From NCBI GenBank assembly GCA_963766775.1, contig CAVYBP010000010.1, positions 120,523-184,522 of the forward strand: 64,000 bases of DNA, read 5' to 3'. Numbering within the stretch: position 1 is the stretch's first letter; each line of letters opens with the position of its first letter. This stretch comes from an uncultured Phycisphaerales bacterium. Its GTDB lineage: Bacteria > Planctomycetota > Phycisphaerae > WQYP01. The notes under the pieces are model-generated. The model saw only the letters and a program-made list of their open reading frames with translations. It was not told the DNA's origin and did not search any database. A program made the translations under genes and the position numbers. Below, in pieces: positions 3,246 to 62,822 of the stretch.

Positions 3246-4679
3246 TTAGCGGTGTGGGGTGAGGCGGTAGAGGACTGCACCGTGAGGATTAAGGGTGGCG
3301 GAGAGAGTATCCTTGGTCATCTCCACGTCTTTGCCGCTCCAAAGATCGTGAATGATGCACGGAGTGGTGAATCCAATGTCGGCAAGGGTGACCGTGATCG
3401 TCGCTGGCGGGTCAATTCCGGGAAGGGTCGTGTCCCGATCATGCCCCGATCCCACCCTGTTCCCTCCTCCGGAAGGGGGCGGAGAGGCGTTAAAGAGGGC
3501 GATATATTTGTCTTTTGAATCGGGGACGTCGGCGACCCAGGCGATATGGTTATCGCGCCGGAAAAGTTGGCGGTTGTGGATGGAATGTTGATCGACGGCG
3601 ATAACTTCGTCGTTGGTAATGAGGGAAAGCGTGAACGGGTCGGCGTTGGGGAGATTAGAGCCGAGGATGAGGGGCGAGCGAGCGATCGACCAGAGGGTCA
3701 TGAGGGTGATTTGTTCGTCATGGGTGAAGCGGGTCTGGTTGTTGTTGTCTCGCCAGGCGCGGATGTTGCCGAACGGGATCATGTCGGCATCGGGGAAATG
3801 GCCGGGACCGCGGTACGGGGTCCAGGCGTCGAGGCGTGCGAATTGTTCGTAGAGGGCGGGCCAATTATCCCAGAAGTCGTCGCTGACTCGCCACATATTG
3901 GCGTTGGCGGCGATGTGCGGACCCTGGGCGACGGGGGTGGCGCCGGGGGAGGTGGAGAAGATGATGGGGCGACCGGAGCTGTCGATGGCTTTGCGGATCG
4001 CTTCGATTTCGGCTGTGTGGTAGGGGGCCGAGAGGTCATCGACTTTGACGAGGTCGAGGTCCCAGGAGGCGAGGAGGGCGAAGACGGAGTTGTAGTATTC
4101 CTGCGCGCCGGGCTTGGCCATGTCGATGCCGTACATGTCGGTGTTCCAGCGGCAGAGGGATGTGGTGTCGGCGATGTCGGCGGCGTGGAAATTTGTGCCG
4201 AGGATGGGGAGATTTTGGGCGACGGCCTGGCGGGGAATTCCGCGCAGGAGATGGAGGCCGAACTTGAGGTCTTGGGCGTGGAGCGCATCGGCGAGCGGCT
4301 TAAAGGAGCGGGTCTGGGCCGTCATGGGGAAACGGTTGGCGGCGGGGAGGAGGCGGCCGTTGGCGTCCATTTCGAGGACCGCGTTTTTGCGGTAGCGGTC
4401 GGTGTGGGCGAGGGGTTCGTACCACTGGATGTCGACGGTGACGATGGTCCAGCCGTGGGATTGGAGGTTCTTGTGGATGAAGTCGGCGTTGTCGAGGGTT
4501 TGTTTTTCAGTGACGCCGGCACCGAAGCAGTCCCAGGAGTTCCAACCCATGGGAGGGGTGGGGGACCACGAATGGAATGCAGGCGTCAGAGTTTCTGTGG
4601 AGTTGGCGGTGACCTGTGCGGATGCGGTCGCATCGACTAGTCCAATCACCAAGAAGAGTGTTGCAAGCTGGCTGTTCAT
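3246..4679 (-). CDS. alpha-galactosidase, glycoside hydrolase family 27
   Basis: PPMGWNSWDCFG motif and downstream GH27 conservation; start placed at internal Met preceding signal peptide MNSQLATLFLVIGLVDATASA (ORF extends to 4898). Confidence 0.7.
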   Translation of the reverse strand: MNSQLATLFLVIGLVDATASAQVTANSTETLTPAFHSWSPTPPMGWNSWDCFGAGVTEKQTLDNADFIHKNLQSHGWTIVTVDIQWYEPLAHTDRYRKNAVLEMDANGRLLPAANRFPMTAQTRSFKPLADALHAQDLKFGLHLLRGIPRQAVAQNLPILGTNFHAADIADTTSLCRWNTDMYGIDMAKPGAQEYYNSVFALLASWDLDLVKVDDLSAPYHTAEIEAIRKAIDSSGRPIIFSTSPGATPVAQGPHIAANANMWRVSDDFWDNWPALYEQFARLDAWTPYRGPGHFPDADMIPFGNIRAWRDNNNQTRFTHDEQITLMTLWSIARSPLILGSNLPNADPFTLSLITNDEVIAVDQHSIHNRQLFRRDNHIAWVADVPDSKDKYIALFNASPPPSGGGNRVGSGHDRDTTLPGIDPPATITVTLADIGFTTPCIIHDLWSGKDVEMTKDTLSATLNPHGAVLYRLTPHR

Positions 4680-6725: not shown

Positions 6726-7476
6726 AAGTATCTCCGATCTAAAATGTACCCAAACCACAGTATAAGAAATGTTAAAGTGCCCGCAGTGCGGGCACTTCTG
6801 TGGCGAATTGCGTGATATGCAAATCACTCGAATCGGTTCTATTGTCCAACCTTGAACGCATAATATCAAATTTTGATCAGTGAGACGTGTAGATCAATAC
6901 AGAATAATCGATCTAACGCAAACAAGCAACAGCAAATTTCGCAAATTTCGGGTGCGGAATTTCGAAAATTTGCGATGCGAGATTTTCCATGTGGAGAGGG
7001 GTGACACCTGACGACCAAGGGAAGAAAACGCTATTTTTGGCTTTGCGACTGCGATTCCGACTTCGTCCTCTTAATCGCTTTTTAAAAAGATGGAAGATCG
7101 GGATGTTGAGGCGCGGCATTCGGGCGCCCGAGGCAGCGGCGTCGATTCTAGGACAAATATGTGTGCTTTTGTATTCTTCTCAAATAGGTTTTTAAGCCCA
7201 AAACAGAGCTGGTTTTGAAAGCTTTTTTGGATGAGATGGGGGCATTTTGGAGGGAACTCGTTTTTGTGAAGAATAAAGTGGCGTAGGGTGGGCACTATTA
7301 AAGTGGTGGGTCCTAGCGGTACCGCGAAGGCATGTTCGTTAGGTCCGATTTCGTTGGGCCTGATTTGGATCGGATGTGGGCTTTGATGGTTAAGAAACGG
7401 TCCATGGCGGTGCGGCGGGGGGGGGGGATTCCGGCGGAGCCGGTGACGGCGGCTATTTTTTCGCCGCAGGTGACAA

Positions 7477-8310
7477 ATGCGCGGCGGTGTTTTGTGGGGC
7501 CGGCGTCGGATGGGGCCGGGTCACTGGCGGTGGTTTGTTGCGGACGGGAGCAATGTGCCGCCGGCGTACGAGGTTCGACGTCCGAGCTTTCCGTATCTTG
7601 GGGTGGAATTTGTTGCGAGCGGGGAAGGGGTGTTGCGGATGGGGGGCAAGGAACATCGGTTGGTGGCGGGGGTGGTTTTTGCGTATGGGCCTGGGGTGGC
7701 GCATGAGATCACGTGTGTGCCGGAACGGCCGTTGGTGAAGTATTTTGTGGATTTGGCGGGGCGGGACGCGGATGAATTGCTGGTGACGCCGCGTCCGGGG
7801 GGGATTGTTCAGACGTCGGCACCGGAGCAGATTTTGCGGTTGTTTGATGATCTGCTGGATGCGGGGATGAAGAAATCGGCGATGACGGAGAAGATCTGTG
7901 CGGTGATCGTGCAGCATTTGTTGTTGAAGATAGCGGAGACGGCGGTGCCGCTGGGTGAGACTGGGGCGGAAGCGTTTGAGACGTATCAGCGGTGTCGGAG
8001 TTATATCGAGACGAATTATCAGAATGTGGTGGACTTGCCGCAGATCGCGGCGCATGGGGATATTGATCCGGCGTATGTGTGCCGATTGTTCAAGAGGTTC
8101 GATCGGCATGGTCCGTGGCAGTATGTGGTGAAGTTGAAGATGCAGGATGCGGCGCAGCGGCTGAAAAGTCCGGGAGCGATGATCAAGACGGTGTCGGCGG
8201 AATTGGGGTTCAGCGATCCGTTTCAGTTTTCGCGGACGTTTCGGCGGGTGTATGGGGTGTCGCCTCGGCGGTTTTTGCAGTTGCAGCGGGGGGCGGCGGT
8301 GGGGGTTTGA
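7477..8310 (+). CDS. AraC-family transcriptional regulator (cupin N-domain + C-terminal HTH)
   Basis: C-terminal IKTVSAELGFSDPFQFSRTFRRVYGVSPRRF AraC HTH signature; N-terminus uncertain (poly-G11 at 7421-7431 and alternative frame upstream). Confidence 0.55.
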   Translation: MRGGVLWGRRRMGPGHWRWFVADGSNVPPAYEVRRPSFPYLGVEFVASGEGVLRMGGKEHRLVAGVVFAYGPGVAHEITCVPERPLVKYFVDLAGRDADELLVTPRPGGIVQTSAPEQILRLFDDLLDAGMKKSAMTEKICAVIVQHLLLKIAETAVPLGETGAEAFETYQRCRSYIETNYQNVVDLPQIAAHGDIDPAYVCRLFKRFDRHGPWQYVVKLKMQDAAQRLKSPGAMIKTVSAELGFSDPFQFSRTFRRVYGVSPRRFLQLQRGAAVGV

Positions 8311-51419: not shown

Positions 51420-52495
51420 CTATTGGGGAGGGCTTTTATAGAGGGCGGAGTAGTCGGTGTCGGTGGGGTGTTGGGCGTACCAGGCGAACAGAAATGAGTA
51501 GACTCGCAGTGCGTGGGGTTGCGTTGCGGGGGGGGGTGGGGTTGCGATTGCTGCTTCGGTGGTGGCTTTCCAGTGGGTTCCATCGGTGGTGGTGAGAATG
51601 AGGGGGGTTTTGAAGGGGAGGGTGGAAGTGGGCCACGGGGGGGTGGGGGCGACGGGGAAGCGGATGTCGTCGGTGGCGAGGTAGAGGTTGAAGGGGTCCT
51701 GGGCGTCGGTGTAGGACTGTTTCAGGGTGCGCAGGCCGCGGAAGACGCGGGTGGCGGGGTGGGCGGCGAGCCATTGTTTCCAAGTGGTCAACTCGAAGGG
51801 GAGGAGGGTAAGCGACTTGCCGGCGGCGGGGCCGGCGATGGCGCGGAAGGAGAGTTGGGACCACAGCGATTCCTGCGCGGGGTCTGGATGGCGGTCGAAG
51901 AGGAGGAGGTTGGAGTTGTACAGGAGGCCGGAGACGCCGAATTCGAGGCCGGAGGCGGGGGCGGGGACTGGGGAGGGGGGGGGGGGGCGGGGCGGGTGAA
52001 GACGACGGCGCTGCCGGAGAGGGCGGACCAGGTGACGGCGAAGGGGGTGTTGGCGATTCGGTCGTTGACGATTTCGTGGAGGTTCATGAAGCGGATGGGG
52101 TAGGCGCGGGCCTGGCCGTCGATGAGGACGCCGATGACGCGGTCGGGGCCGAGGAGGAAGGGGGTGTAGTCGTGCTGGTTCATGAGCTCGACTTCGGGCG
52201 GGGAGAGGGTTTCGACGAGCGATTCGGGGACGGCACGGACGGCGTCCTTGGGCTTTCCGGAGGGGATGAGCTGTTCGCGCGGGACGGTGAGGTTGGCGAG
52301 GTTGAAGTGGTAGGAGTCGAGATGCTGGCCGTCGCCGACGGCGGAACGGAACCCGGTCTGCCACACCGGGATGAGGACGATGACAGCGGAGAGGAGGGTG
52401 AGGATCGCGGCAAGGAGGAGGACCCAGCCGCCGGAGGAGAAGGTGAGGAGGCGGGTGGGGGGGTGGGGCGGCGGGATTTCTGGTGGGTGTTGCAT
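51420..52495 (-). CDS. membrane-anchored DUF3179-like protein interrupted at an internal G13 (poly-Pro-coding) tract
   Basis: N-terminal TM (GWVLLLAAILTLLSAVIVLI) and DYTPFLLGPDRVIGVLIDGQARAYP in ORF 51788-52495; C-terminal half in ORF 51420-52364; frames switch at G13 tract 51975-51987. Confidence 0.45.
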
Positions 52496-53429
52496 GGTGC
52501 GTATGGTAGCGGGATGCGCGGGGTTTGGGGTGGGTAAATTGTAATTGGTAAATAGTAATTGGCGATTTCTTTGAGCGCGGTTGGGGGCAAGGTGCTCATT
52601 GGGTTTGCGCAGGTGCGCAAATGGGAAAGTGGTGTAAGTGGTTGGGGATGCGGGGGTTGGTTCGAGGTGCGCAAGATGCTCATTTTATTTTTTAATTCGA
52701 GGGCGAGTGTTGGGGCTTGGGTCTTGAGTCTTGGGGGGTGGGGAGGGAATGCTGAATGTGGAGTTCTGAATGGTGAAGGGGAGAGTGGGTGCATGGTGGT
52801 CTCCTATAGAGGGGCGGTGCGCCCGAGTTTGTGCGCACAGGATCGCGGGGTGGAGGATGCAAGTGGTTGTGGGGGTGTGGGTTGGGTTTTTTGGAGGGGT
52901 GGAAAATTTGTGGCGGGAGGGGTTGGGCTGTGCGCACAGGCGGTTAAAGGAATTGTTGGGGGGGGGGTCGACTTTTAGAGTGTTTGGGGATATGCGGGTG
53001 GGCAATTTTTTTTTGGGGGGGGGGGCGTGCCGGGAGAAGGGTGGTGGGTGACATTTTGGCGGTCTTTTGTGGCTCGCCGAGCGAAAAAAATGTTTGGGAC
53101 CTCACTTTGCTGGATTCCTCTGTCCTTCTATTAAATTTAATTATAGATATATTCATGTCTCCATTAAAAATGGAGTTGGTTTTTTTATAGGGGTATGGAG
53201 TGGTGAGGGGTGGGTGGGTTTGGGGGAGGTTTTTTTTGGGGGGGGTTGAGGGTGGTGGTGGTGTGGTGCCGGGGGCGGGGTGGTTGTCTGAGGATGGGGG
53301 GTTGGGGTTTGGGGCTTTTGGGGGGTGATTGGAGGGGTAGCGGGGGCGGATGGATCGGGCGGTTTCGGAGGAGGATGGGCCGGCGGTTGGGAGTACGCGG
53401 GTAGACATTTTAGGCGGTCTGTGCGTGAC
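52496..53429. other. 0.9-kb G-rich (plus strand) gene-free low-complexity region with poly-G tracts, repeated TGCGCA boxes and an AT-rich hairpin
   Basis: no ORF with protein-like composition; G8-G12 runs at 52966, 53014, 53237; GTGCGCACAGG x2, AGGTGCGCAA x2; CTCCATTAAAAATGGAG hairpin + T-run at 53158-53187. Confidence 0.5.
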
Positions 53430-57628: not shown

Positions 57629-58896
57629 TCAACTACCGAAGAGGCTGTGGGGTTGGAAGTAGCCTTTTTGGTCGAAGTATTTGAAGGCTTCGTCGACGCT
57701 GCGGAAGACTTTGTTGGCAGTTTGGGTGATGAAGGGGCTTGGTTCTTTTTTTGGTTTCCAGATGACGTAGACGTCTTTGGCGTGTTCGTGGGCGTGTTGG
57801 AGTTCGCGTTCGACGCCGCTGCTGAGGGCGGGTTTTCCGTCTCCGGCGCCGGGGCCGGCGGGGCCGGGGAGTTCGGGGATGTAGGAGATGATCATGTCGG
57901 ATTGTCGGACGAGCATGAAGTCTCGGGCGTAGATTTGGCCGTCGATGTCGGGGACGATTTGGAGGAGGTCTGCGACTTTGAGGTGGAGGGGGGAGGGGGA
58001 GGACTGAGGGGAGGGGCTTGGGGCTTGGGGGCTTGGGGCTTGGAGGGTTGAGGGTTGGGGGTTGGGGGGAAGAGGGTGAGGGTTTGTTTGCCGGCTTGGG
58101 CGGCTTGGATGGCGAGGTTGGAGAGGATTTTTTCGTCGACGTCGCCGGGGTCGAAGGCGATCATTTTTTCGGCGATTTTGGCGCGGAAGGCGTTGATCTC
58201 AGCGAGGATGTCCGGGAGGTCCATGACGTGCGACATCGGGAAGGATGGGTAGACGGTTTTCATGTTGGGGCGGAAGAGGAGGCGGAAGAGGGTTTCGTAG
58301 GTGGGGGTGGTTCGGCCACGGGAGAGGACGAAGAAGCGCGAGGAGTCCTGAGTCTTGAGTCTTGAGTCTTGAGAGGGAGCGGGGGGGGGAGGCACGGCGC
58401 CGCCTTGGTTGGGGGGGATTCGGCGGATGGAGCGGGCGAGGATTTCGGTGGCGAGGATTTCTTCTTCGCGCCAGACCATGAGGTCTTTGAGGGAGTGCTC
58501 GAAGTCGTGGTCGCGGAGCATGCGTTGGTGGACGGTTTCGATGTTGTCGACGAGGGTGACGTAGAGGTCGGCGTCGAATGCGGCGAGCTGGTCGAAGTCG
58601 AAGGCGGAGAAGAGGCCGTGCTTCCAGCGGAAGGTGGCGTGGGTGTTGACGATGACGTTTTTGTGGTTGTGCATGTCGGCGAGGATGTCGCGGAACACGG
58701 CGCGGCGAAGCGAGTTGAGGCGTGAGAGAGGGAGGTCGAGGATGCGGCCCGGGGGGACGTCGGGGGCTTCGCGGTACATCATGTCGCCGATGTGGTAGAT
58801 GTGGAGTTGTTCGCCGTTGAGTTGTGCGATGGCGGCGACCTGGTCGAGGAATGCTTTTTTGTCGAGGCCGATTTGGCCGGTGAGGAGGGTTCGCAT
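57629..58896 (-). CDS. three-domain hypothetical protein (degenerate P-loop kinase-like N-domain) whose inter-domain linkers are encoded by simple-sequence repeats; frameshift in second linker
   Basis: N-domain MRTLLTGQIGLDKKAFLDQVAAIAQ...VIVNTHATFRWKHG; linker 1 from (TGAGTCT)3.5+G9 at 58349-58389; linker 2 from (GCTTGGGG)4 at 58014-58045; C-domain in ORF 57629-57916 (DVYVIWKPKKEPSPFITQTANKVFRSVDEAFKYFDQKGYF). Confidence 0.35.
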
Positions 58897-58926: not shown

Positions 58927-59870
58927 TTAGGGGTTGGTGAGGGGGTTGGGGTTGGTGAGGGCGTTGACTACGTCGCGGGCGACCCAGCTCATTTGGTCCA
59001 TGGCGCCTTGGGTTCGGGCGGCGAGGTGGGGTGCGAGGATGATGTTGGGGCAGTCGAAGAGGGGGTAGTCGGAGGTGGGAGGTTCGGGGTCGTGGACGTC
59101 GAGGCATGCGCCGGCGATGCGGTGGTTTTTGAGTGCGGCGGCGAGGTCGTGGGCGTTGACGACTTCGCCGCGGCAGGTGTTGACGAGGATGGCGGTGGGT
59201 TTCATTTGGGAGAGTGCGGCGGCGTTGATGAGGTGGTGGTTGAGGTTGTTGGGTTGGTGGTTGACGTGGAGGGTGAGGATGTCGGCGCGGGCGTAGAGTT
59301 CGGGTTTGGTGACGCTGATTGCGGGGTAGTCGATGAGTGGGGAGACGTCGAGGAGGTCGTTGTAGAGGACGTTCATTTGCATGGCCCAGGCGATTTTGCC
59401 GACGCCTCGACCGATGCGTCCCATGCCGAGGATGGCGATGGTTTTGCCGGAGAGTTCGAGTCCTCGGATATTTTTGCGGTAGGCGTGGAAGGCGTCGGGG
59501 GGGACGGCTTCTTTGAGGTTCACGACGGGGCGGGCGAGAGAGAAGATGAGGTTGAAGACGTATTCGCAGACGGCGCGGGAGTTGGCGGTGGGGGTGGAGA
59601 GGACCTGGATACCGCGTGCGGCGCAGGCGGGTTGGTCGATGTTGTCGAGGCCGACACCGGCGCGGCCGACGACTTTGAGTTTAGGGGCGTGGGAGAGGAA
59701 GGCGACGTTGACCTGGGTGTAGGTGCGGACGATGACGGCGTCGGCGTCGGCGAGAGCGGCGTGGAGTTTTTCGGGCTCTTTCCAGGAGACTTCGAGGACT
59801 TCGGCGTTTTCGCGGAGCCAGGCGAGGGGGATTTTTTCGAGGCTTTCGGTGAGGAGGATTTTGGGTTTCA
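58927..59870 (-). CDS. D-isomer-specific 2-hydroxyacid dehydrogenase (SerA/glyoxylate reductase-like)
   Basis: MKPKILLTES start with AAGGA RBS; NAD-binding GKTIAILGMGRIGRGVG, catalytic His region LAPHLAARTQ; embedded in spurious longer ORF 58927-60474. Confidence 0.7.
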
Positions 59871-59893
59871 TGGGGGTCCTTGTGGAAGGGGGG

Positions 59894-60012
59894 GGTAGAC
59901 GGTAGACGGTAGACGGTAGACGGTAGACGGTAGACGGTAGACGGTAGACGGTAGACGGTAGACGGTAGACGGTAGACGGTAGACGGTAGACGGTAGACGG
60001 TAGACGGTAGAC
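59894..60012. repeat. perfect heptanucleotide tandem repeat (GGTAGAC)x17 preceded by G8
   Basis: 17 identical 7-bp units; G8 at 59888-59895; lies 24 bp upstream of ATG at 59870 and downstream of HAD stop; inverted partial copies (GTCTACC x2-3) at 60039-60072. Confidence 0.9.
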
Positions 60013-60059
60013 GGAAAAATGCCACTGCCACCATTTTTCTACCGTCTTCTGTCTACCGT

Positions 60060-60791
60060 CTACCTTCTTCCGTTTGGCGACATTTTTATGTTGAGCCATT
60101 GTGCGAGTTGGGTGGGGGTGAGGTGGGAGAGGGAGGGGAGGGCGAAGGTGGCGTGGCGTTGGACTTGTTCGAGTGGGAGTGAGGTGGCGACGCCGAGGAC
60201 GCGGAGGTGGGCGGCTTTGGCGGCGCTGCAACCGCCTTCGGAGTCTTCGATGACGAGTGAGAATTCTTTTTCGAGTTCGGCGTCGTATTCGAGGTTGAGT
60301 TTGTCGAAGGCGAGGTTGTAGCCTTCGGGGTCGGGCTTGCCCATGCGGACGTCTTCGATGGTGACGAGGACGTCGAAGTGGTGGCGGAGGTGGAAGGCGT
60401 CGAGGAGGGTGAGGATTTCCTCGCGGCGGGCACCGGAGCAAATGGCGCGGGGGATGTTGTTTTGTTCGAGCCATTCGAGTGTTTCGCGGACGCCTGGGAG
60501 TGGCTCGGCGAATTCGCTGAGGTTTTTTTCGAAGAGGGCGTGCTTGGCGTCGGCGAGTTTTCGGATGAGTGCGGGAGGGTGCGGGCGGCCATGATCTCGG
60601 AGGATGTGGGTGAGGCCTTCGGTATCGCCGTAGACGATGTATCGGGTGAAGTAGGTTTGGGGGGAGATGGCGAGGGTGCCGCCGATGTCATCGGCGTGTG
60701 CGGCGAGCGTGTGGTTGTAGGCGCTGAGGTGGAGGCGTTCGGTGTCGGCGATGACGCCGTCGAAGTCGAAAATCACGCAGCCTTGGGACAT
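60060..60791 (-). CDS. HAD-superfamily hydrolase (beta-phosphoglucomutase/phosphatase-like)
   Basis: motif I VIFDFDGVIADTE, motif II/III (CSGARREE, GKPDPEGY...EDSEGG); stop TAG at 60060-60062 embedded in inverted copies of the heptamer repeat. Confidence 0.65.
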   Translation of the reverse strand: MSQGCVIFDFDGVIADTERLHLSAYNHTLAAHADDIGGTLAISPQTYFTRYIVYGDTEGLTHILRDHGRPHPPALIRKLADAKHALFEKNLSEFAEPLPGVRETLEWLEQNNIPRAICSGARREEILTLLDAFHLRHHFDVLVTIEDVRMGKPDPEGYNLAFDKLNLEYDAELEKEFSLVIEDSEGGCSAAKAAHLRVLGVATSLPLEQVQRHATFALPSLSHLTPTQLAQWLNIKMSPNGRR

Positions 60792-60871: not shown

Positions 60872-60901
60872 GGTAATTGGTAAATAGTAATTGGTAATTG
60901 G
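60872..60901. promoter_or_regulatory. conserved AT-rich 30-mer GGTAATTGGTAAATAGTAATTGGTAATTGG = (TAATTGG)-like heptamer x4, 81 bp upstream of HAD gene
   Basis: identical 30-mer recurs at 62682-62711; variant at 52533-52562; inverted partial copy at 62755-62770. Confidence 0.5.
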
Positions 60902-62681: not shown

Positions 62682-62711
62682 GGTAATTGGTAAATAGTAA
62701 TTGGTAATTGG
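62682..62711. promoter_or_regulatory. second identical copy of the AT-rich 30-mer, 28 bp upstream of peroxiredoxin start
   Basis: exact match to 60872-60901; forms an inverted arrangement with CCAATTACCAATTACC at 62755-62770 in the peroxiredoxin/queD divergent intergenic region. Confidence 0.5.
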
Positions 62712-62822
62712 GGTATTGGCGAGATTGGGCGGGAGATTTTCAAATTCGTATGTGCCAATTACCAATTACCAGCTGTTCAGTACCCGCTTACTTTGGCACT
62801 TTGATGGAGGTAGGATAGAGCC

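Follow-up and report, generated by a model that had tools for sequence, protein, structure and literature searches.

A perfect 17-unit heptanucleotide array and its inverted partner between two genes of an uncultured Phycisphaerae bacterium

Layout of the locus

We analyzed a 64,000-nucleotide stretch of DNA from an uncultured Phycisphaerales bacterium (assembly GCA_963766775.1, contig CAVYBP010000010.1, positions 120,523 to 184,522), referred to below as the window, which carries a tandem array of the heptanucleotide GGTAGAC between the gene for a HAD-IA family hydrolase and that for a D-isomer 2-hydroxyacid dehydrogenase. Both genes are read from the minus strand (Table 1). A preceding sequence-only reading had described a perfect 17-unit array that folds with inverted copies of its unit, and had proposed that it serves as a repeat-number-dependent terminator or attenuator, or as a phase-variable promoter. 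Tandem Repeats Finder confirmed the array on the plus strand, with 17.3 copies, a period of 7, 100% matches and a score of 242. The two-unit 14-mer has 19 matches in the window against 0.15 expected, and no second GGTAGAC element was found within the 64 kb, the array being the single one there.

The HAD stop codon and the dehydrogenase start are 188 nt apart. In the mRNA, the order is HAD stop, five GGUAGAC-like units (the proximal arm), a loop, (GUCUACC)17 (the distal arm), a C8 run, the ribosome-binding site (RBS) and the AUG. Written in mRNA sense, the locus reads AAC GGA AGA AGG TAG(stop) AC GGTAGAC AGAAGAC GGTAGAA AAATG-GTGGCAGTGG-CATTTTT CC (GTCTACC)17 CCCCCC TTCCAC AAGGA CCCCC ATG. Two of the five proximal units are perfect, and the 36-nt arms are 89% complementary, with at least 12 registers in which the inverted copies can pair with the array. 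The proximal arm overlaps the last four HAD codons, and the stop codon TAG (60062–60060) sits within one inverted unit, which bears out the proposed overlap of the inverted copies with the HAD stop codon. The spacer between the arms, previously called palindromic, is an imperfect palindrome, GAAAAATG ... CATTTTTC, with a 10-nt loop between its halves.

The array lies in the dehydrogenase leader, and the AAGGA RBS is placed as the sequence-only reading had it. Some of the finer distances need adjustment. The last heptad is 22 nt from the dehydrogenase ATG, and the 24 nt given earlier apply when the CC shared with the C-run is left out. The G8 run on the plus strand is present, with eight residues only when the first two G of unit 1 are included. 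It is a neighbor of the RBS, and 16 nt separate it from the start codon, which it was previously said to abut.

Table 1. Coordinates of the array, its inverted partner and the neighboring genes in the window.
Feature	Position	Strand	Remarks
HAD-IA family hydrolase, 243 aa, upstream gene	60060–60791	−	Open reading frame listing and Pfam
Proximal arm, five degenerate purine-rich units	60038–60073	−	GGAAGAA GGTAGAC GGTAGAC AGAAGAC GGTAGAA (mRNA)
Spacer and loop, A5TG ... CAT5 imperfect palindrome around GTGGCAGTGG	60015–60037	−	
Distal arm, (GTCTACC)x17 in mRNA sense	59894–60014	−	Units all identical; pyrimidine-rich, 43% C, 14% G
C8 homopolymer (G8 on plus strand)	59888–59895	−	Two bases in common with the last heptad; 6 nt upstream of the RBS
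AAGGA ribosome-binding site of the dehydrogenase	59877–59881	−	5 nt upstream of the ATG, 59871–59869
D-isomer 2-hydroxyacid dehydrogenase, PGDH-like, 314 aa, downstream gene	58927–59871	−	Open reading frame listing and Pfam

The nearest genomes in a GTDB scan are metagenome-assembled genomes (MAGs) of uncultured Phycisphaerae (Planctomycetota), at 73–79% protein identity. Together with the window GC of 58%, this agrees with the proposed high-GC host from the Planctomycetota–Verrucomicrobiota–Chlamydiota (PVC) group. The dehydrogenase start is consistent with these relatives, as the N-terminus MKPKILLTE matches their MKPKIVVTE. Synteny extends to the dehydrogenase alone. In the relatives, a different upstream neighbor ends in a classical hairpin plus T-run, and a conserved TATGAT/TATCAT box lies 15–110 nt before the dehydrogenase ATG. 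This box is absent upstream of the window dehydrogenase, where the array and the C-run occupy its place, and no sigma-70-like promoter was detected in or near the array, a result that lends no support to the phase-variable promoter. The closest plausible promoter is that of the HAD gene. A candidate proto-repeat in the leader of one relative (CCGTCCTCCATCGTCC, just 5′ of the RBS) is identical to two units at 11 of 16 positions, too weak a match to use. A functional pairing of the serA/serB type between the HAD and dehydrogenase genes is not supported, as neither protein scores above an NCBIfam equivalog cut-off.

Among 5.8 billion proteins, no dehydrogenase homologues were found between 81% and 100% identity, and an exact-protein look-up returned no record for the HAD protein. 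The sole exact dehydrogenase match is a 1168-bp Logan contig (ERR11571141) that starts 51 nt upstream of the ATG and shows the same junction of array, C-run, RBS and ATG. Only about 30 nt of the array are included before the contig ends, which is the behavior of a k = 31 graph at a repeat. This break, and a frame break in the C-rich runs of a neighboring gene that could be a homopolymer error (see below), would fit an array that is real but whose 17 units and G8 run are mis-estimated in length, through collapse or expansion of the 121-nt repeat or homopolymer error. We consider such an artefact highly unlikely. The junction recurs on the Logan contig, arrays of 8–15 units assemble consistently in many independent metagenomes, and the perfect identity of the units is unlike an error-prone long-read consensus.

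The locus also holds a lesson for annotation. The GTCTACC strand has no stop in any frame, and gene callers are therefore misled into reading through such arrays. A spurious 515-aa open reading frame (58927–60474, minus strand) begins inside the HAD gene, crosses the array, whose repeat translates as STVYRLP, and continues into the dehydrogenase. A protein from a relative (P0015) is called at 409 aa, its frame including a stretch of degenerate CAATCKC heptads that precedes the true start.

Predicted folding and unit number

The minus-strand RNA spanning 59860–60100 folds at −76.5 kcal/mol (z = −5.3 against shuffles). Its centroid structure is nearly empty because the pairing registers are equivalent. 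To the intergenic RNA, a folding series was applied in which the number of distal units, n, ran from 0 to 30. The pairing probability of the proximal arm rose from 0.52 to 0.87 by n = 4 and was flat beyond, and for n ≥ 1 the accessibility of the RBS stayed at 0.30–0.33 and that of the AUG at 0.57–0.68. The stem saturates at 4–5 units because the five-unit proximal arm caps it. About five distal units are able to pair and about 12 stay unpaired, such that near n = 17 added units merely lengthen an unpaired C-rich leader. The modeling shows a predicted stem and RBS exposure that are independent of copy number for n ≥ 5. The hairpin and its alternative registers, as described by the sequence-only reading, are upheld, and the idea that repeat number sets their geometry is not, except for spacing.

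No terminator-like site was found on the minus strand at the locus, where further repeats and the C8 run come after the stem. With no U-tract after it, the hairpin is not a canonical terminator. A search of Rfam 15 gave no match at gathering score and only sub-threshold matches to miRNA precursors, which are typical of long hairpins.

Inverted heptad hairpins as a class

Arrays with a period of 7 are abundant in this lineage. In 241 kb of unselected Phycisphaerae DNA, 16 such arrays were found against 1.5 in shuffles, an excess of about 10-fold, with periods 4 and 5 depleted and period 8 at background in the same DNA. The window alone has seven period-7 arrays against 0 expected, and a count of perfect ones gave four against 0. 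Two relatives (L003 and L004) carry inverted heptad pairs made from other units (CAGAAGT/ACTTCTG), one of which is squeezed in between a tRNA gene and the end of a gene. GGTAGAC itself, in three or more units, occurs on at least 120 JGI metagenome contigs with a GC of 31% to 73%, and none of the 120 listed comes from a conspecific of the window organism. Two of these contigs were assigned by marker proteins, to Vicinamibacterales (Acidobacteriota) and to Anaerolineae (Chloroflexota), and the elements have been seen in at least three phyla (Planctomycetota, Acidobacteriota and Chloroflexota) as well as on contigs classed as viral. Among the matches listed, a typical GGTAGAC array has 3–6 units and the 17 of the window form the longest perfect run, followed by runs of 14.3 and 11.9 at contig ends and an internal one of 13.1; some imperfect arrays exceed the window array in length.

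The particular heptad appears to matter little. On viral contigs, (GGTAGAC)3 was found on 11 and three composition-matched permutations of it on 5, 11 and 56. GGTAGAC as a special sequence, for example through a link to the GTAG tag of repetitive extragenic palindromic (REP) elements, was rejected, since its permutations form arrays equally or more often in viral contigs. The 10-kb Anaerolineae contig (L087) bears four inverted heptad hairpins, at 2883–2975, 3908–3980, 7102–7150 and 8165–8210, each with its own unit (AATGAGT, GGTAGAC, TAAAACG and AGAAATG, respectively) and all with the purine-rich arm 5′.

Direct and inverted heptads could be iterated sites for a DNA- or RNA-binding protein. 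In inc18 plasmids, the ribbon-helix-helix omega protein binds heptad operators and centromere sites, and the window units have a similar layout. Protein binding has been proposed by MacGregor for TAACTGA arrays just upstream of start codons (PMC4679880), and the window has a 22-mer of CCAATTA heptads upstream of three genes. A binding array at the GGTAGAC locus is nevertheless quite improbable, given that single contigs bear several hairpins of differing heptads, composition-matched permutations form arrays as often, only one GGTAGAC element exists in the 64-kb window and no candidate gene for a binding protein is adjacent. Another possible explanation is non-B DNA, in which two-tetrad quadruplexes of the G-containing strand, or a cruciform of the inverted arms, would act on replication or transcription at the DNA level, as proposed for GGGAATC and GGGGATT repeats. 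GGTAGAC has no G tract beyond GG, whereas the published quadruplex class of heptamers needs at least four G3–G5 tracts with short loops, and many heptads of the class, such as TAAAACG and AGAAATG, have no G runs at all. Comparable heptamer arrays do form G-quadruplexes and i-motifs in vitro (PMC4692102), and inverted arms can extrude a cruciform; we give this explanation very little weight.

The inverted pairs have a nearly fixed handedness. An inverted partner of at least two units within 250 nt accompanies 40 of the 127 GGTAGAC arrays among the matches listed, and 33 of the 87 that lie away from contig ends. Five scrambled units served as controls; four gave 0–2 matches and the fifth gave 16, which are not independent because that unit is within two mismatches of the GTCTACT arm variant. 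Among the matches listed, the order 5′-(GGTAGAC)n-spacer-(GTCTACC)m-3′ was found in 39 of 40 pairs (p = 7e-11). Reverse complementation leaves this order unchanged, and the bias is therefore one of true chirality, with the purine-rich arm 5′ on both strands. Inverted pairs of unrelated heptads from the GGTAGAC-bearing contigs follow it in 18 of 18 cases. So do 10 of 10 closely spaced pairs on viral contigs, where one pair in the opposite order is 361 nt apart, and the window element conforms. GGTAGAC contains TAG and GTCTACC is open in every frame, and a stop in a 7-nt unit amounts to stops in three frames. Stops in all frames were not retained as the cause of the handedness: stop triplets occur in 12 of 19 5′ arms and 4 of 19 3′ arms, and composition-matched shuffles give equal values (11.3 and 4.3), so that the 5′-arm excess is what purine richness alone predicts.

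Gene context was derived from heuristic gene calls made after masking the arrays. The elements lie between 14 co-directional, 6 convergent and 1 divergent neighbor pairs, and the distance between a gene 3′ end and an arm ranges from −9 to +27 nt. Of the 14 co-directional pairs, 12 have their longer and more perfect arm on the transcript-distal side (p = 0.013), as does the window element. The natural reading is that the proximal arm is constrained by the last codons of the upstream gene and that the distal arm is free to slip. On two contigs (L105 and L107) a gene end and hairpin are followed by an RBS and ATG about 10–40 nt past the distal arm, and the downstream gene must therefore be transcribed through the hairpin. 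Six or more T within 12 nt past the 3′ arm were found in 2 of 34 elements, and the elements are therefore not canonical intrinsic terminators. Heptad hairpins also come directly after tRNA genes (L126, ~80–270; L003, 18980–19130) and are therefore not confined to protein-coding 3′ ends.

Variation in unit number was assessed with a surrogate, namely 13 loci (L139–L151) that are syntenic with a Vicinamibacterales contig (L117), which has near-identical relatives in many soil metagenomes. The alr-radA spacer of strains with radA at least 99.2% identical contains 8, 9, 9, 12, 12 and 15 CGATAGC/CGATAAC heptads, with spacer lengths of 90, 96, 97, 118, 118 and 139 nt, and one contig that begins inside the array has more heptads than 15. 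The alr stop codon falls in the first heptad, and both genes are housekeeping genes on the same strand. Lineages at 84–86% identity have one proto-unit (GATCGATAACCGATCGAAC), no array or another heptad hairpin (GCAGATT/CAATCTG). The proto-unit in the sister lineage overlaps the alr stop codon, and the set captures, in natural strains, successive stages in the origin and growth of an array. A range of 8–15 units among near-identical strains indicates that class arrays in such positions are hot spots of slippage with a short evolutionary life, and they stand beside genes without plausible need of phase variation.

Criteria for Rho-utilization (rut) sites, when applied to the unpaired arm of the window element, describe it as rut-site-like over about 85 nt (43% C, 14% G). 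Length-dependent Rho loading, or RNase III processing of a hairpin in the 5′-untranslated region, could make the array a programmed contingency locus, that is, a selected phase-variable or rheostat element of the leader. The class is hypervariable, the array ends 22 nt from the ATG with the ancestral promoter box missing, and at the Haemophilus influenzae hmw loci, too, a heptameric simple sequence repeat (SSR) supplies one side of a long hairpin in the leader and has repeats left over that stay unpaired (PMC12721329). Even so, such a locus is unlikely. The downstream gene encodes a generic 2-hydroxyacid dehydrogenase in a free-living bacterium, and the PGDH-like dehydrogenase and the HAD-IA hydrolase are both generic enzymes of a housekeeping type, neither being of the surface, restriction-modification or host-interaction type. 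The predicted stem and RBS exposure do not depend on n, the handedness is opposite to that of hmw, in which the pyrimidine-rich repeat arm is 5′, and the comparable arrays studied by Rehm et al. showed no regulatory role (PMC4692102). The same architecture occurs beside alr/radA, rplI, tRNA genes and others. It recurs in at least three phyla, whatever the kind of neighboring gene, which favors a generic element and not a switch specific to one locus.

Further heptad tracts are found elsewhere in the window. Downstream of the dehydrogenase, an AAA_17-domain gene (57629–58896, minus strand) corresponds to one gene of about 390–405 aa in relatives, such that residues 20–266 of a homologue (P0367) align to the open reading frame at 57892–58896 and residues 279–385 to that at 57629–57979. 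The split is due to a frame change at 58013–58068, within a C-rich period-7 tract (CCCCAAG/CCCAACC-like), and the frame would be restored by adding 1 nt, adding one 7-nt unit or removing 14 nt. The break is due either to heptad slippage, in which case the gene is a pseudogene or in a phase-OFF state, or to a sequencing error in a homopolymer. Inside the same gene, AAGACTC x4.4 (58343–58373, minus strand) stands beside a C9 run and belongs to a 25-codon in-frame insertion relative to P0367, in a poorly conserved linker, and a related AAGACTC/AAGACCC stretch lies beside a C6 run in intergenic DNA at 52710–52735. The 22-mer CCAATTACTATTTACCAATTAC occurs exactly at 52541–52562, 60873–60894 and 62683–62704, all on the minus strand (three copies against 0 expected). 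It consists of CCAATTA-type heptads, has an inverted partial copy at 62755–62771 and precedes the minus-strand starts of a gene at 51788–52495, the HAD gene and a peroxiredoxin gene by about 28–110 nt, making it a candidate shared promoter or operator. It is absent from 151 comparison loci. The coding strand of the window (mostly minus) is strongly C-rich and G-poor, with C-ending codons, which accounts for long shadow reading frames on the opposite strand and for many G/C homopolymer runs of 6–9 nt near heptad arrays.

Interpretation and comparison with known systems

The reading we favor, at a probability of roughly 0.6, is that the array is the overgrown transcript-distal arm of an inverted heptad hairpin at the HAD stop codon, and that the element is intercistronic and not a programmed switch. 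Slipped-strand mispairing would recently have built the 17 identical units in the arm that is free of coding constraint, with the proximal arm, which overlaps the HAD C-terminus, staying short and degenerate. Recent expansion had already been suggested from the identity of the units, and the variation of a class member among near-identical strains is in agreement. The expansion may have pushed aside, or taken the place of, the promoter box seen ahead of the dehydrogenase in relatives, in which case the dehydrogenase would probably be transcribed by read-through from HAD. On a HAD–dehydrogenase co-transcript, a stem of about 34 bp would form right after the HAD stop; it is most likely an intercistronic hairpin that acts as a 3′-end protector or RNase III-type processing site, like REP hairpins in operons. 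Copy number would then alter the length of the unstructured C-rich leader and leave the stem unchanged, and dehydrogenase expression, if affected at all, would change gradually and as a by-product, with no programmed ON/OFF switch. The element is probably hypermutable, a regulatory role of the array is hypothetical, and the consequence for the gene pair is probably modest. The interpretation in the sequence-only reading is partly supported, and an SSR that tunes expression as the arm of a 5′-untranslated-region hairpin has a precedent in H. influenzae hmw (PMC12721329).

Several points weigh against this account. Co-transcription of the two genes, the hairpin in vivo and any processing of it are what we infer from the layout of the locus, and the gene context of the class is based on heuristic calls. 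Copy-number variation is shown for the class and presumed for the window locus. Planctomycete promoters are poorly defined, and the spacer or the proximal arm may contain one. In hmw, expression depends on repeat number despite an unchanged predicted hairpin (PMC12721329), and an effect of repeat dosage may therefore exist despite the folding result. Finally, the fixed handedness hints at a selected RNA-level or DNA-level property that lies outside the favored account. In a more far-reaching reading, heptad hairpins would be a cross-phylum functional class of RNA 3′-end or intercistronic elements, with selected handedness (purine-rich arm 5′, pyrimidine-rich arm 3′) and arms sized by slippage, and the surplus (GUCUACC)12 of the window would be a length-tunable attenuator of the dehydrogenase that works, for example, through Rho loading or RNase III. 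We regard this as rather unlikely; if true, it would place an hmw-like rheostat in a free-living environmental bacterium.

The class is of greater interest than the locus. Its three regularities, namely the near-invariant handedness, the anchoring at stop codons without a U-tract and the polymorphism beside housekeeping genes, make the old question of heptanucleotide arrays easier to test.

Among known systems, REP elements and bacterial interspersed mosaic elements (BIMEs) are enterobacterial extragenic palindromic hairpins that follow stop codons, often in operons and without U-tracts, and they probably shield the mRNA upstream of them against 3′ exonucleases. REP units are palindromes of 20–40 bp with a GTAG or CGTC tag, present in high copy and mobilized by REP-associated tyrosine transposases (RAYTs). 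The window element is alike in being a hairpin just past a stop codon without a U-tract, and it probably works likewise. It differs in its arms, which throughout the class are tandem heptads of many sequences, and in having one copy in 64 kb; no link to a RAYT was seen, with no search aimed at one.

The best-studied heptameric leader repeat is the (ATCTTTC)n SSR of H. influenzae hmw1A/hmw2A, which is transcribed in the leader (PMC12721329; PMC8262952). There, 10 repeats make up one side of a long, imperfectly paired hairpin, and any further repeats remain outside; expression falls as repeats increase, and RNase III processing of the hairpin is required (PMC12721329). Both loci have a heptameric SSR in the leader, a fixed paired number and a predicted hairpin that extra repeats do not change. 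In hmw, however, the pyrimidine-rich repeat arm is 5′ to a non-repeat G-rich 3′ arm, the promoter is upstream of the repeats and the gene, from a host-adapted pathogen, encodes a surface adhesin; phase variation and the effect on expression are experimentally demonstrated in hmw, whereas the window element is known from sequence alone. The TAACTGA arrays of marine Beggiatoaceae, cyanobacteria and Bacteroidetes, with up to 43 copies (MacGregor 2015; PMC4679880), share an intergenic position that often ends a few nucleotides before a start codon, a spread over distant phyla and neighbors of all gene classes, housekeeping genes among them. They differ in using one specific heptamer, in being inverted in 1 of 170 sets and in overlapping the RBS position, and their author reads them as the binding site of a translational regulator (PMC4679880). 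Heptad elements of four units are known from Geobacter (PMC2700814).

The best match is with the heptanucleotide arrays of cyanobacteria and Xanthomonas. Mazel et al. reportedly described short tandemly repeated repetitive (STRR) heptanucleotides of cyanobacteria in 1990. Three heptanucleotide families from Calothrix PCC 7601 (1990) and an excess of heptameric SSRs in bacteria (2007) are cited in PMC4692102. The STRR sequences resemble the window class in being intergenic tandem heptanucleotides with several unit families per genome, and differ in that the unit families are few, high in copy and found in heterocystous cyanobacteria. Rehm et al. (2015) described GGGAATC arrays in Xanthomonas and GGGGAYT arrays in Nostoc PCC 7120 (PMC4692102). 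The Xanthomonas arrays have 2–26 units at about 185 loci, with about 70 convergent inverted pairs per genome and perfect arrays of up to 14 units in Xanthomonas campestris, and Nostoc has a perfect 26-mer between pecE and pecF (PMC4692102). In both, about 90% of arrays are intergenic, on average 28 nt after the upstream open reading frame, and few lie between divergent genes; sister species have arrays of different length, and the neighbors belong to all functional classes, with no regulatory role found (PMC4692102).

These published arrays fit the same pattern as the inverted heptad hairpins described here, with 7-nt tandem units near the 3′ end of an upstream open reading frame and convergent pairs of the window handedness. 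The differences are in the units, which in Xanthomonas and Nostoc have G3–G4 tracts read as quadruplex formers and in GGTAGAC only GG, in the phyla, and in unit usage, as a Xanthomonas genome has one dominant unit whereas each element in the window and related contigs has its own heptad. That such repeats are rarely described in PVC bacteria, as the sequence-only reading stated, is consistent with our finding no literature on them in Planctomycetes. With its tandem 7-nt units near the 3′ end of the upstream gene, the period-7 excess of Phycisphaerae DNA and its convergent inverted pairing, the window element is a long heptameric SSR of the STRR/Xanthomonas-GGGAATC kind, and it adds Planctomycetota to the hosts of such arrays.

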